Shown piece by piece: positions 37,486 through 46,964 of a DNA stretch of 64,000 nucleotides; the stretch's first letter is position 1; each line of letters starts with the position of its first letter. This DNA is from an uncultured Gaiellaceae bacterium. Lineage in GTDB: Bacteria; Actinomycetota; Thermoleophilia; Gaiellales; Gaiellaceae. Position numbers and translations under genes: made by a program. The notes under the pieces are model-generated. The model saw only the letters and a list, made by a program, of their open reading frames with translations. It did not search any database and had not been told where the DNA came from. Location: positions 147,087-211,086 of the forward strand of contig CAWGAP010000001.1 in NCBI GenBank assembly GCA_963820695.1, given 5' to 3'.

Positions 37486-37522
37486 CAGTGGCCGAGTCTA
37501 TCCCGCAGGGCGGCGAGCGAGA

Positions 37523-37545
37523 CTTTGTGTTCCTGTAACACAAGC
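37523..37545. repeat. 23-nt AT-rich palindromic element, copy 1 (ctttgtgttCCTGTaacacaagc)
   Basis: It has 7-9-bp arms, TTGTGTT / AACACAA, around a 5-nt core. It lies 38 nt upstream of the acd start, in the 121-bp acd / response-regulator intergenic region. Confidence 0.85.
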
Positions 37546-37578
37546 ACCGCTAGCCCGCACCGTTCCGTGGCTGGAGGA

Positions 37579-37601
37579 CTTTGTGTTACAGGAACACAAG
37601 C
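37579..37601. repeat. 23-nt palindromic element, copy 2 (ctttgtgttACAGGaacacaagc)
   Basis: The arms are identical to copy 1 but the 5-nt core is inverted. It lies 56 bp from copy 1 and starts 6 nt after the HD-GYP regulator stop codon. Confidence 0.85.
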
Positions 37602-37606
37602 CGTCT

Positions 37607-43547: not shown

Positions 43548-44699
43548 CTAGACGTCGATCAGGAGCGCGTCGCCCTGGCCGCCGCCGGAGCAGATCGCGG
43601 CGAGGCCGAGCCCGCCACCGTTGCGGCGCAGCTCGTGCACCATCGTCCCGACGATCCGGCCGCCGGAGGCGCCGATCGGATGGCCGAGCGCGACCGCGCC
43701 GCCGTTGACATTCACGATCTCCTCGTCGGCGCCGAGCAGCCGGGTCGAGTTGAGCGCGACCGATGCGAAGGCCTCGTTGATCTCCACGCGCTTGACGTCG
43801 TCGATCGTCTTCCCCGCCTTCTCGAACGCCTTGGCGGCCGCGTTGGCGGGCGTCCGCACGAGGTAGGCGAACTCGTCGGCGACCCAGCCCTGCGAGACGA
43901 TCGTCGCCAGGATCTCGAGCCCGCGCCGCTTCGCGAACTCCTCCGAGGTGACGATCACGGCCGAGGCGCCGTCGTTCACTCCGGGCGCGTTGCCGGCCGT
44001 CGTCGTCCCCTCCGGGTCGAAGACCGGCTTCAGCCTCGCGAGCGATTCGGCGGTCGTGTCGCGGCGGACCGACTCGTCGGCGACCACGTCGCCGACAGGC
44101 ACGAGCTCGTCCTCGAACCGACCCTCGTCCTGGGCTGCCACCGCGCGCTGCTGCGAGCGGAGTGCCCAGGCGTCCTGCTCGTCGCGGCTGATCCCGAGCT
44201 CGCGCGAGACGAGCGAGTTGTGCTGGACCATGTGCAGCTGGTCGTAGGCGTCGGTGAGGCCGTCGAAGATCATCGAGTCGAGCAGCTCGCCGTGGCCGAG
44301 CCGGTAGCCGAAGCGTGCCTTCTTCAGCAGGTACGGAGCGTTCGACATCGACTCCATCCCGCCCGTGACGATCACCTCGGCGTCGCCCGCGCGGACCATC
44401 GCGTCGGCGATCTGGACGGCGCGGATCGAGGAGGCGCAGACCTTGTTGATCGTGTCGGCCGGAGTCTCCTTCGGCAGGCCGGCGCCGATCGCGGCCTGGC
44501 GCGCAGGCGCCTGGCCGGCGCCGCCCTGGAGCACCTGGCCCATGATCGTGTACTCCGGCTCGTTCGCCTCGAGCCCGATCCGCTCCATCGCCGCCCTGAT
44601 CACGATCGAGCCGAGCTCGGTTGCCTGATGGCCGGCGAGACCGCCGCCGAGCTTGCCGAACGGCGTGCGGACGGCCGAGACGATCACGGAGCGGGACAT
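43548..44699 (-). CDS. Acetyl-CoA C-acetyltransferase (thiolase II)
   Basis: 383 aa with the active-site segments VCASSIRAV, NVNGGAVALGHPIGASG and ICSGGGQG. Confidence 0.93.
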   Translation of the reverse strand: MSRSVIVSAVRTPFGKLGGGLAGHQATELGSIVIRAAMERIGLEANEPEYTIMGQVLQGGAGQAPARQAAIGAGLPKETPADTINKVCASSIRAVQIADAMVRAGDAEVIVTGGMESMSNAPYLLKKARFGYRLGHGELLDSMIFDGLTDAYDQLHMVQHNSLVSRELGISRDEQDAWALRSQQRAVAAQDEGRFEDELVPVGDVVADESVRRDTTAESLARLKPVFDPEGTTTAGNAPGVNDGASAVIVTSEEFAKRRGLEILATIVSQGWVADEFAYLVRTPANAAAKAFEKAGKTIDDVKRVEINEAFASVALNSTRLLGADEEIVNVNGGAVALGHPIGASGGRIVGTMVHELRRNGGGLGLAAICSGGGQGDALLIDV

Positions 44700-44710
44700 G
44701 CTCTGAATCT

Positions 44711-45720
44711 ACCGGGCGTACGTCTCGTCCGGCCGCAATCGCGCCGCGAACGCGGTCAGCACCTCGAACGCAGGCCTCGAGGTCGCTCAGCTGGACGATC
44801 TCGATCGGCGAGTGCATGTTGCGGAGCGGGATCGAGACGAGCCCCGTCGGGATCCCCTCCCGGGAGGCGAAGGTCACGTCCGCGTCCGTGTAGGTCTTGG
44901 CGCCCGCCTCGATCGTGTGGTCGATCCCTTCCTCGCGCGCGGCCTCGACGAGGAGCTCGAAGACGCGCGGGTTGACCGCCGGCCCGCGGAAGATCGCGGC
45001 GCCGCCTCCGAGCGAGTGGTGACCGCCCGTGGCGGGGTCGTCGCCGGGAACGTCGGTCGCGTAGGTGACGTCGATCGCGATCGCGACGTCCGGGCGCAGG
45101 CCGTGCGCGGCCGCCATCGCGCCGTGAGCGCCAAGCTCCTCCTGCGCGGCGGCGACGACGGCGACGTTCGCCCCCTCCGCGCGCCGCAGCGTCTCGAGCG
45201 CGACGTAGACGCCGGCGCGGTTGTCGAGCGTCCGGGACGCCAGCCGTCCGTGGGCGAGCTCGACAGGCGGCGCGTCGAGCACCATCGGGTCGCCGGGCGC
45301 GACGAGCGAGCGCGCCTCGGCCCCGTCCTTCGCCCCGATGTCGACGTAGAGCTGGCCCCACTCGACTTTCTCGTTGTCCTTCACCTTCCGCGCGATCACA
45401 CCGGGGACGGCGCCGTCCTTCGTCCGGATCTCGACCCGCTGGCCGTACGCGACGTTCGCGCGCCAGTGGCCGAGCTGGTGTACGGCGATCAGCGCGTCGT
45501 CGGCGATGTGCGCGACGGCGGCGCCGATCACGTCCAGGTGCGCGAAGAGCGCGAGCAGTGGCCCGTCGCCGCGGCGGCGCGCGATCAGATTGCCGACGGA
45601 GTCGGACTCGACCTCGGCCACCTCACCGACCGAAGCGCGGACGACGTCGAAGGCGAGGTGCTCGTGCCCGGAGGGCCCGTGCGCACGCAACAGGCGGTCG
45701 AGGAGCTCCGGGACGGCCAT
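44711..45720 (-). CDS. M42 family (glutamyl/FrvX-type) aminopeptidase, frameshift near the 3' end
   Basis: The family motifs are FAHLDVIG, TLDNRAGV, AAQEELG and IPLRNMHSPIEIV. The main frame runs on without a stop codon into antisense thiolase (ORF 43525..45720). Shifting frame at about 44765 gives ...LEACV(R)VLTAFAARLRPDETYAR with TAG at 44711-44713. Confidence 0.8.
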
Positions 45721-45734
45721 CCTGCGGGCAGTCT

Positions 45735-46964
45735 ATGGCCGTGCGCATCCCCACAGACCTGCTGACACCGCTCGGCGCCTACCTCCGCCTCCGCGACGGC
45801 GCCGCGGCGAGCTTCCTCCTCGAGTCGGTCGAGCAGGGCAGGCTCGGGCGCCACTCCTTCATCGGCTCGGGAGCCCGGCTCGTCTCGTTCGAGGAGGCGG
45901 AAGCGCTCGATGGGCCCGTCGTCGGCTATCTCGCGTACGACCACGCCGCCAAGCTCGAGCCGACGGTGCAGCTCCCCGCCGAAGGCCCGGAGCTCCCGGA
46001 GAGCCGCTTCGTCGTCGCCGAGACGCTCGTCCGCTTCGACCACGGCAGCGGCACGGCGGAGGTGCTGGCGGGCGACCAGGACGCGATCGCAGCGCGGCTC
46101 GGGCGAGAGCTTGTGTTACAGGAACACAAACTCCCCTCGCAGCGCTCAACCATGCGGCGGACGCCCGACCAGGCCACGTACGAAAGAGGCGTGGAGCGGA
46201 TCCGCGAGCACATCCGCGCCGGGGACGTGTTCCAGGTCGTGCTCTCGCAGCGGGCCGAGCGGCAGACGTCGGCATCGGCGCTCGAGCTCTACCGGGCGCT
46301 GCGCCGGGTCAACCCGTCGCCGTACCTCTTCCTCCTCGAGCTGGGCGAGCTTGCGCTCGTCGGCTCGTCGCCGGAGACGCTCGTCAAATGCGAGGACGGC
46401 CGGGCCAGCCTGAACCCGATCGCGGGCACGACCCATCCCGGCGAGGGGGACGCCGAGCGGCTGCTCGCCTCGGAGAAGGACCGCGCCGAGCACGTGATGC
46501 TCGTCGACCTCGGCCGCAACGACCTCTCGCGCGTCTGCACGCCGGCGAGCGTCCGCGTCGCGCGCTTCCTCGAGCCCGAGCGCTTCTCGCACGTCACCCA
46601 TCTCGTCTCGGAGGTGACCGGCGAGCTGCGCGAGGGCGTGACGCCGTTCGACCTCCTCCGCGCCTGCTTTCCGGCCGGAACGGTCTCCGGCGCGCCGAAG
46701 GTGCGCGCGATGCAGATCGTCTCCGAGCTCGAGGGCTACCGCCGCGGCCCCTACGCCGGCGCCGTCGGCTACGTCCTCCCGGGCGGCTCGATGGACACGT
46801 GCATCGCGATCCGGACGATCGTCCTCCAGGACGGCGTCGCGCGGCTGCAGGCGGGTGCGGGGATCGTGGCAGACTCGGATCCGGAGGCCGAGCACCGCGA
46901 GTGCCTGTCGAACAAGCTCGCCGCGCTCGAAGCCGCGATCGACCTGCGCCGAGGAAGGCGCTGA
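45735..46964 (+). CDS. trpE: Anthranilate synthase component I
   Basis: 409 aa from ATG 45735, uninterrupted, with LLESVE, GDVFQVVLSQR, NPSPYLF, GTVSGAPKVRAM and GPYAGAVGY. It contains palindromic element copy 3 in its interdomain linker. Confidence 0.92.
   Translation: MAVRIPTDLLTPLGAYLRLRDGAAASFLLESVEQGRLGRHSFIGSGARLVSFEEAEALDGPVVGYLAYDHAAKLEPTVQLPAEGPELPESRFVVAETLVRFDHGSGTAEVLAGDQDAIAARLGRELVLQEHKLPSQRSTMRRTPDQATYERGVERIREHIRAGDVFQVVLSQRAERQTSASALELYRALRRVNPSPYLFLLELGELALVGSSPETLVKCEDGRASLNPIAGTTHPGEGDAERLLASEKDRAEHVMLVDLGRNDLSRVCTPASVRVARFLEPERFSHVTHLVSEVTGELREGVTPFDLLRACFPAGTVSGAPKVRAMQIVSELEGYRRGPYAGAVGYVLPGGSMDTCIAIRTIVLQDGVARLQAGAGIVADSDPEAEHRECLSNKLAALEAAIDLRRGRR
46109..46131. repeat. 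23-nt palindromic element, copy 3 (gcttgtgttACAGGaacacaaac), inside the trpE coding sequence
   Basis: It matches the reverse complement of copy 1 at 22 of 23 positions. It encodes ELVLQEHKL in the poorly conserved linker upstream of the chorismate-binding domain. Confidence 0.85.

Follow-up and report, generated by a model that had tools for sequence, protein, structure and literature searches.

Palindromes in a Gaiellaceae contig belong to a lineage-specific family of possible operator-like DNA sites

Three near-identical, AT-rich palindromes lie in a 64,000-nucleotide stretch of DNA from an uncultured Gaiellaceae bacterium (contig CAWGAP010000001.1, positions 147,087 to 211,086), hereafter the window. 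These copies are members of a Gaiellaceae-specific palindrome family of ~27 bp, in which 7-bp half-sites, TTGTGTT and AACACAA, enclose 5 bp that are less constrained. We favor a model, to which we give a probability of about one half, in which the palindromes are operator-like sites of a Gaiellaceae-specific dimeric DNA-binding protein and have been spread in part by a module resembling a miniature inverted-repeat transposable element (MITE).

The pattern TTGTGTT-N5-AACACAA occurs exactly three times in the window, once as the 19-mer TTGTGTTCCTGTAACACAA (copy 1) and twice as TTGTGTTACAGGAACACAA (copies 2 and 3; Table 1), and a scan of all 64 kb allowing up to 3 mismatches found no fourth match. 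Dinucleotide-preserving shuffles gave essentially none (mean 0.00 matches at 2 mismatches and 0.05 at 3), which confirms the claim of an earlier reading of the letters alone, the sequence-only reading, that three such copies are beyond chance. Copies 1 and 2, 56 bp apart from center to center, form a doublet in the 121-bp gap (37486-37606) between a response-regulator/HD-GYP gene and an acyl-CoA dehydrogenase gene, both of them on the upstream side of the minus-strand dehydrogenase gene. The third copy, a singlet, stands in frame within trpE, 391 bp from the start at 45720 of the divergent M42 peptidase gene. Gene calls thus bear out the arrangement that the sequence-only reading had described, including the spacing of the doublet, the peptide ELVLQEHKL in trpE and a distance of ~390 bp to the M42 unit. 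Its more general description, of a dispersed, dyad-symmetric, non-random element found both between genes and in frame within them, is likewise supported.

To delimit the family, 185,579 species, each represented by one genome, were searched for exact matches to the 19-mer TTGTGTTACAGGAACACAA. Ninety-nine stretches matched, 96 of them in ~70%-GC metagenome-assembled genomes (MAGs) labeled Gaiellaceae or unresolved Actinomycetota; the other three are in low-GC Bacillota-type genomes (29-46% GC) and correspond to about the number expected by chance. The motif is therefore far from unique to the three sites; uniqueness, together with a lack of regulator binding and of a transcript boundary, is what the sequence-only reading had named as fatal to its proposal. 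Since these MAGs were produced by several independent projects with several sequencing technologies, the palindrome is not an assembly artifact. The number of exact loci in a genome is lowest, 2, in a complete 3.12-Mb chromosome and reaches 9-11 (~16 sites) at the other extreme, and the proteins of the window are 96-97% identical to Gaiellaceae-type metagenome proteins. One motif-bearing contig (L004, CAVOPE010000006.1) is binned in a "Gemmatimonadales" MAG; its PfkB-locus synteny and GC are those of the Gaiellaceae loci, and it was probably mis-binned. The exact 19-mer is almost diagnostic for the Gaiellaceae lineage in metagenomes.

The way in which the sequence varies points to a protein that reads it. 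An alignment of 58 copies with diverged flanks shows that conservation reaches GAGC-TTGTGTTACAGGAACACAA-GCTC (~27 bp), with GACT/AGTC as an alternative flank and nothing conserved more than ~5 bp out at either end. Its form is that of a 9-1-9 near-palindrome, with symmetry broken only at positions 8 and 12 (A/G) and at the center. The 5-nt core, earlier described as asymmetric, is itself nearly symmetric, with C9 pairing with G11; among its variants ACAGG, CCAGG, TCAGA and ACAGA, the second and third are fully symmetric. The 23-mers of Table 1 can be compared in this light. When copy 1 is reverse-complemented, copy 3 agrees with it at 22 of 23 positions, as had been noted, and copy 2 shares the flanks of copy 1 with a complementary core, again as noted. 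The accompanying suggestion that the core can flip does not survive, because with a nearly symmetric core in a 9-1-9 unit a "flipped" core is the same site seen from the opposite strand, together with flanks of two variant types. Across 218 sites, 56 arm substitutions are one-sided and none is compensatory; T1, G3, T4, G5 and their partners hardly ever change, while positions 2, 6 and 7 do. Where loci were ascertained by protein and not by motif, variation is greater in the 5-bp core than in the arms. Dyad half-sites are thus kept by sequence around a looser spacer, as in an operator, and one-sided changes without a compensatory pair argue for base-specific recognition of two half-sites by a dimer rather than for hairpin pairing. 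As far as sequence can tell, the pattern fits the signature of a dimeric protein.

Sites inside genes provide a second view of this constraint. By a strict test, 33 sites lie inside open reading frames (ORFs), where they are read in the sense frames VLQEHK, CVTGTQ and LCYRNT and in one antisense frame, CVPVTQ. Wherever the encoded peptide was examined, it fell between Pfam domains. Copy 3 falls between the Anth_synt_I_N and Chorismate_bind domains of TrpE, that is, at the junction of the N-terminal and chorismate-binding domains. Elsewhere, sites are found in both linkers flanking the E3-binding domain of a 2-oxoacid dehydrogenase E2, between domains I and II of PMM/PGM, between the G domain and domain 2 of SelB, between the middle and C-terminal domains of a thiamine pyrophosphate (TPP) enzyme, between the two nucleotide-binding domains of a duplicated ABC ATPase, after the acetyltransferase domain of a GNAT protein, and between the N- and C-terminal domains of a second acyl-CoA dehydrogenase.

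The sequence-only reading had raised the possibility of an element, like the repetitive extragenic palindromic (REP) sequences, that inserts in frame, and had suggested that trpE orthologs be aligned for an insertion of about 8 codons. None is seen. The segment from FDH to IRA is 62 residues long in 107 of 120 close homologs and 61 in another 11, and the linker has the same length whether it reads ELVLQEH(K/N), ELVFQKH(K/N) (a symmetric core variant), ELVLKQH or the degenerate DLVAVSNY. In distant TrpE structures the linker is too variable to judge insertion, and closer representatives were used instead: the closest that lack the motif (72%, 64% and 63% identical) have a proline-rich linker of equal length. 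The linkers of PMM and SelB are within 1-4 residues of solved homologs in the PDB. Because linker lengths are equal, in-frame insertion fails for trpE; the proposal holds for the intergenic doublet, which is an insertion that relatives lack, but not for the trpE, PMM and SelB copies, which add no codons. Judged from these alignments, substitution in place produced the trpE site and, in some lineages, is eroding it. Among 13 species the 19-mer is unchanged in 12, while codons of the linker around it differ at all three positions, a mark of selection acting on the DNA itself on a 71%-GC background. The singlet is present in L025, whose dehydrogenase site is empty (see below), and is therefore older than the dehydrogenase doublet. 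In one MAG (L058, ~6700-6740), the trpE reading frame is off by one base immediately before the palindrome; the site is then read LCYRNT and the downstream sequence is garbled. This is probably a nanopore indel, though it lies right at the AT-rich element. A 19-bp DNA signal kept in the linkers of at least eight unrelated enzymes, with protein length unchanged, exemplifies selection on DNA overriding codon choice.

The doublet has a different history. At the dehydrogenase locus, relatives fall into two states. The site is empty in L133, L134 (dehydrogenase 89% identical) and L025, where the gap is 10-11 nt without a palindrome and the stop codon of the HD-GYP gene forms part of the -10 box, GCG-TAAACT-N8-ATG. 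It is filled in the window and in L081, L092, L093, L080 and L071, which carry ~110 bp extra with the doublet inside a TAA/TAG...TAG repeat. The locus accordingly displays the presence/absence polymorphism at orthologous sites by which MITEs are recognized. Candidate target duplications are TA(A/G) here and TGAGC at the PfkB locus, where the doublet is bordered by a direct repeat of that sequence; none is clear elsewhere. On these comparisons, the behavior of the doublet is that of a small repeat module, acquired and perhaps also exchanged as the family radiated. L135 (94% identical; 9826-9987) and L041 (6841-6897) carry an unrelated MITE-like element with 13-bp terminal inverted repeats (TIRs), GGAGGGTTTGGCG...CGCCAAACCCTCC, and TA flanks, which in L135 occupies the exact spot of the window's doublet. 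The junction of stop codon and -10 box may be an insertion hot spot.

A hexamer TA(G/A/T/C)ACT stands 8-9 nt before the start codon in all orthologous dehydrogenase loci, with the doublet or without. A scan with promoter and terminator consensus sequences returned nothing; the -10 box emerged from the species comparison. Relative to this box, the proximal palindrome has a fixed position: copy 1 ends 24 nt upstream of it in the window, and in four of five filled species the distance is 24-25 nt, placing the palindrome at about -37 to -55, abutting the -35 region, with the second palindrome 56 bp further upstream. The fifth species, L081, has extra sequence between palindrome and box. A similar layout is found at an HMGL-like carboxylase gene (23 nt) and at a carboxyltransferase gene (14 nt, overlapping the -35 region). 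A fixed promoter position is thus seen in three contexts, 14-25 nt upstream of a TANNNT box; most other sites, among them those in coding sequence, between convergent genes or between cistrons, are without it. All three genes belong to acyl-CoA metabolism, and this lends local support to the operator idea of the sequence-only reading. The comparison of empty and filled relatives, in which a palindrome module has dropped between a stop codon and a -10 box, offers a concrete example of promoter rewiring by a small repeat. In the outgroup L131 (1445-1500), the dehydrogenase gene is accompanied by a divergent gene for a 102-aa Xre-type helix-turn-helix protein, with an AT-rich intergenic palindrome, AACATA-N5-TATGTT, upstream of TATACT-N6-GTG; on its sequence, this dehydrogenase looks to have a separate local regulator.

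Gaiellaceae loci with the palindrome fall into ~30 syntenic contexts that recur across species. From the window itself, the HD-GYP/dehydrogenase doublet is shared with the five filled loci named above and the trpE singlet with 12 further loci. Other doublets fill the space that separates a PfkB kinase/nucleoside hydrolase operon from an unknown gene, lie between convergent GNAT/LarA-like and LivF-like genes, or adjoin the carboxyltransferase and HMGL-like carboxylase genes, an aldehyde dehydrogenase/cupin pair, a pair encoding a flavin adenine dinucleotide (FAD) protein and a LysR protein, GlgB and a thiazole kinase; singlets or pairs occur inside coding sequence. Sites are found in both orientations relative to transcription, and pairs are often spaced 53-58 bp. 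At six or more unrelated loci, doublet spacers share motifs of the CCGCACCGTTCCG type (core CGTTCCG) or the CGCTCAACC type, whose orientation is fixed relative to the downstream palindrome (L004, L073, L075, L079, L013, L024 and others). The spacer motif could be a second protein site, part of a promoter or a mark of common descent. In one MAG only (L008), a 15-bp direct repeat, CTCGAGGTCGGCTAG, comprising the end of the upstream gene with its stop codon, surrounds the doublet (3844-3858 and 3958-3972), which hints at local duplication during doublet formation or insertion.

Several familiar kinds of element were considered for this distribution and set aside. A CRISPR array, or mini-array, does not agree with a maximum of two copies together, spacers common to several loci and mixed orientations. 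DNA-uptake sequences and replication terminators were dismissed on copy number, shared spacers and symmetry. An extracytoplasmic function (ECF)-type promoter in the doublet spacer (GGAAC...GTT) was rejected on reading the contexts, between which orientation and spacing are inconsistent.

Which protein might bind these sites? In two contexts, between pilB and a pilin operon of the type IV pilus locus and next to a threonine dehydratase gene, a small ORF of 113 codons is bracketed by two inverted palindromes 384 bp apart. The bracketing palindromes are present at 13 of 13 genome loci and at every one of 31 further metagenome loci where the flank is present, these loci having been fetched by protein alone and not by motif; there too the ORF is confined to the same two contexts. 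The sites lie 79-81 nt upstream of the start and at nt +304, an arrangement kept even where protein identity is as low as 56%. The ORF is a genuine coding sequence, with third positions changing twice as often and a third-position GC content (GC3) of 0.84. A protein search returned 186 relatives; those listed are ~113 aa long, are annotated "hypothetical" and nearly all end in the site-encoded ELVLQEHKAF, and the source names given are only Gaiellaceae or Thermoleophilia. AlphaFold2 gives a confident model (predicted local distance difference test score, pLDDT, 86.7) with four helices, in which an invariant PSY.HVRR and an RRRR run are predicted to open the third helix, a long one that runs on into a long helical hairpin. 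To be bracketed by the sites that its product binds is typical of the gene of an autoregulated DNA-binding protein, and we propose this basic, all-helical protein as the best candidate binder. The unit of palindrome, ORF and palindrome was also considered as an active transposon and rejected, being found in only two fixed contexts. Searches of the available literature for the motif, or for Gaiella together with palindromic repeats, turned up nothing relevant, and neither the motif nor the 113-aa protein was found described.

In the model that we favor, a dimeric, sequence-specific DNA-binding protein has the palindromes as its high-affinity sites. A ~110-bp module consisting of palindrome, CGTTCCG-type spacer and palindrome was inserted, in a subgroup of species, between the HD-GYP stop codon and the dehydrogenase -10 box. 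There the doublet would act as an operator that places the dehydrogenase operon under the palindrome-binding factor, with the second site allowing cooperative binding. The trpE copy could be an auxiliary, roadblock or structural binding site, placed where the protein tolerates it. The putative factor could be a global transcription regulator, acting by promoter occlusion, roadblock or looping, or a chromosome-organizing protein; its high-affinity sites would be under selection wherever they lie, and new intergenic ones would sometimes be delivered by the MITE-like doublet. We tentatively speculate, with confidence well short of even odds, that the orphan protein of the pilus locus, the linker palindromes written in place and the MITE-like doublets together constitute a global roadblock/looping or chromosome-organizing system and not a pathway operator. 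If the sites do bind a dedicated protein, they would be the first defined regulatory or organizing DNA motif, with a candidate factor, for Gaiellaceae, which are abundant uncultured soil actinobacteria.

Table 1. Coordinates of the palindromes and neighboring features in the window
Feature	Position	Strand	Remarks
Acyl-CoA dehydrogenase gene (butyryl-CoA dehydrogenase in some records)	36322..37485	-	Pfam; downstream of doublet
-10-like hexamer TAGACT	37495..37500	-	9 nt upstream of dehydrogenase ATG; near-leaderless promoter
Inserted doublet module (segment absent from empty-site relatives)	37501..37606	-	TAA...TAG direct repeat borders
Copy 1, promoter-proximal palindrome of doublet	37521..37547		23-mer CTTTGTGTTCCTGTAACACAAGC; core CCTGT on + strand
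19-mer of copy 1	37525-37543		TTGTGTTCCTGTAACACAA
Doublet spacer	37544..37580		recurrent motif CCCGCACCGTTCCG at 37554-37567; CGTTCCG at 37561-37567
Copy 2, distal palindrome of doublet	37577..37603		23-mer CTTTGTGTTACAGGAACACAAGC; core ACAGG
19-mer of copy 2	37581-37599		TTGTGTTACAGGAACACAA
Response-regulator/HD-GYP gene	37607..38674	-	Pfam; stop codon 7 nt from copy 2
M42 peptidase gene	44709..45720	-	divergent from trpE, starts 14 bp apart
trpE, anthranilate synthase component I	45735..46964	+	real start MAVRIPTDLL; GC3 and Pfam
Copy 3, singlet in frame in trpE	46107..46133	+	23-mer GCTTGTGTTACAGGAACACAAAC; peptide ELVLQEHKL
19-mer of copy 3	46111-46129		TTGTGTTACAGGAACACAA

Some features of the surrounding genes deserve mention. 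The dehydrogenase of the window has no exact record in an exact look-up; in its operon Cob_adeno_trans and TauE genes come next, followed in L134 by an MM_CoA_mutase gene at the edge of the locus. At 45718-45737, the M42 peptidase gene has a promoter, TAGACT-N9-ATG on the minus strand, that overlaps the ATG of trpE and has the layout seen at the dehydrogenase, and the sequence suggests that near-leaderless promoters are widespread in this genome. The M42 gene appears frameshifted around 44770-44780, ~45 nt before its stop codon, with the conserved C-terminus LTAFAARLRPDETYAR* in another frame, and the uncorrected ORF continues for 731 codons over the thiolase gene; the break is either a sequencing indel or a real frameshift. 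In a region at ~20000-35300 of the window, GC skew is strongly negative and repeated ORFs form a family, and in the syntenic contig L135 a 2020-aa protein with Invasin_D3/Big domains adjoins the dehydrogenase operon. The region probably encodes a giant Ig-like repeat surface protein.

Several findings weigh against the model of operator-like sites for a dedicated dimeric protein. Many sites lie where no promoter is expected: some are inside genes, some separate convergent genes and some take up an intercistronic gap. The neighboring genes are functionally mixed. All 19 positions, including those of the asymmetric ACAGG core, are near-invariant, which exceeds what operators usually show. The case for the 113-aa protein draws on its sequence character and on the linkage of gene and sites; it has no Pfam or NCBIfam match, and a structure search returned no match at E < 0.3 in PDB or viral libraries. 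Finally, the related spacers at unrelated loci, the two spacer classes present at the dehydrogenase locus and the presence/absence polymorphism look like the behavior of a repeat element. They raise the possibility of a selfish, mobile, MITE- or REPIN-like palindrome family of singlets and doublets with no host function, uniform through recent spread or gene conversion. The repeat-bordered dehydrogenase and PfkB doublets fit such an origin, as does the different TIR element at the same spot in L135, and a gene between two inverted copies recalls the REP-associated tyrosine transposase (RAYT) genes between REPs. We nevertheless regard this explanation as unlikely, if a serious one. Copies in coding sequence add no length, exact copies are few (about 16 at most per MAG, and 2 exact loci in the complete chromosome), and positions are orthologous across species with selection at the nucleotide level. 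Moreover, no transposase was found among 135 loci, the bracketed ORF has neither an HUH/Y1 nor a DDE signature and sits in two fixed contexts, and arms without compensatory changes imply that a hairpin form is not what is conserved.

The same mixture of contexts, together with in-place evolution in interdomain linkers, would suit a chromosome-organizing protein, analogous to those that act at parS, matS, Noc, SlmA or RefZ sites, for which position relative to genes is irrelevant. Such a protein would also agree with ~10-40 sites per genome spread over several large contigs, with strong conservation of orthologous positions and with a small candidate binder gene that carries its own sites. The three promoter-proximal sites at fixed -10 spacing point instead to transcription control, the sequence is unlike the parS consensus, and the one complete chromosome has just two known exact loci; we consider an organizing role on its own rather improbable. 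We have less confidence still in the leading idea of the sequence-only reading, a dedicated operator for a repressor of fatty-acid/acyl-CoA catabolism. What stands of it is the promoter geometry at the dehydrogenase and two carboxylase genes, to which may be added sites in or near genes for the 2-oxoacid dehydrogenase E2, another acyl-CoA dehydrogenase, a thiolase operon, aldehyde dehydrogenase and threonine dehydratase. Most contexts, however, are not lipid-related (pili, PfkB/nucleoside hydrolase, SelB, PMM, GlgB, ABC ATPase, GNATs, a membrane protein, trpE) and several are convergent or in-gene; no TetR, PadR or FadR-type gene is linked to the sites, and the dehydrogenase of the outgroup is accompanied by a divergent Xre-type regulator of its own and by another palindrome. 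The remaining suggestion, RNA hairpins that act as terminators, mRNA stabilizers or processing sites, we hold to be very improbable. It is true that the window's doublet folds into one long hairpin (-50.7 kcal/mol, z = -5.9) and that several copies come just after stop codons, but the 56 one-sided and 0 compensatory arm changes indicate that sequence is conserved and not pairing. No U-tract or terminator-like site was found, a Rfam scan of the doublet region gave only sub-threshold miRNA- or riboswitch-like noise, and sites are found in either orientation as well as within coding sequence.

Set against known systems, the palindromes resemble several without matching any. Like REPs, their doublets (REPINs) and the associated RAYT genes, in which imperfect palindromes of 20-40 nt stand singly or as inverted doublets, they are ~27 bp long with doublet spacing of 53-58 bp, occur after stop codons and between convergent genes, and include one resident gene within two inverted copies. 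However, REPs are strictly extragenic and number hundreds per genome, compared with 10-40 here and at least 33 sites strictly in coding sequence overall; the bracketed gene encodes a 113-aa helical orphan and not an HUH-Y1 transposase, and the arms are without compensatory changes. Rickettsia palindromic elements (RPEs) are likewise in-frame palindromic repeats at structurally tolerant positions of unrelated proteins, but they are 100-150 bp long, add residues and diverge, whereas the palindromes described here are 19-27 bp, add none and are nearly invariant. The operators of CcpA (cre), CodY, Rex and CRP/GlxR share dyad half-sites with a GTG...CAC core, pairing of sites, a mixture of promoter and intragenic positions and a mixed regulon. 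The Rex box is TTGTGAA-N4-TTCACAA (18 bp) and the CRP/GlxR consensus TGTGA-N6-TCACA. The present site differs from the Rex box in its 19 bp, its 7-5-7 spacing and TT instead of AA at positions 6-7; from GTG to CAC it is one base longer than either, no Rex- or CRP-type gene is linked to it, and its invariance is far above the usual. Tens of nearly invariant palindromes, often within genes and at orthologous positions regardless of function, are also known from parS/ParB, matS/MatP, Noc, SlmA and RefZ. The sequence is unrelated to all of these, and some of our sites have promoter geometry; parS, with the consensus TGTTNCACGTGAAACA, clusters near the origin, and our palindrome reads differently from it. 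Finally, MITEs that bring transcription-factor sites or promoters with them, such as the Correia elements of Neisseria and the ERIC/RIP elements (with IHF sites), provide a parallel for a ~100-bp module with inverted-repeat ends that shows presence/absence polymorphism and rewires an adjoining promoter. Compared with MITEs, the module described here has no autonomous parent element that we could find, its target duplication is ambiguous, and each terminal repeat is a full palindrome that also exists alone. The ingredients are thus of known kinds, namely operators, REP- or MITE-like repeats and intragenic sites; it is their combination, a 19-mer written into protein linkers, a mobile doublet and a bracketed orphan gene, that is unusual.

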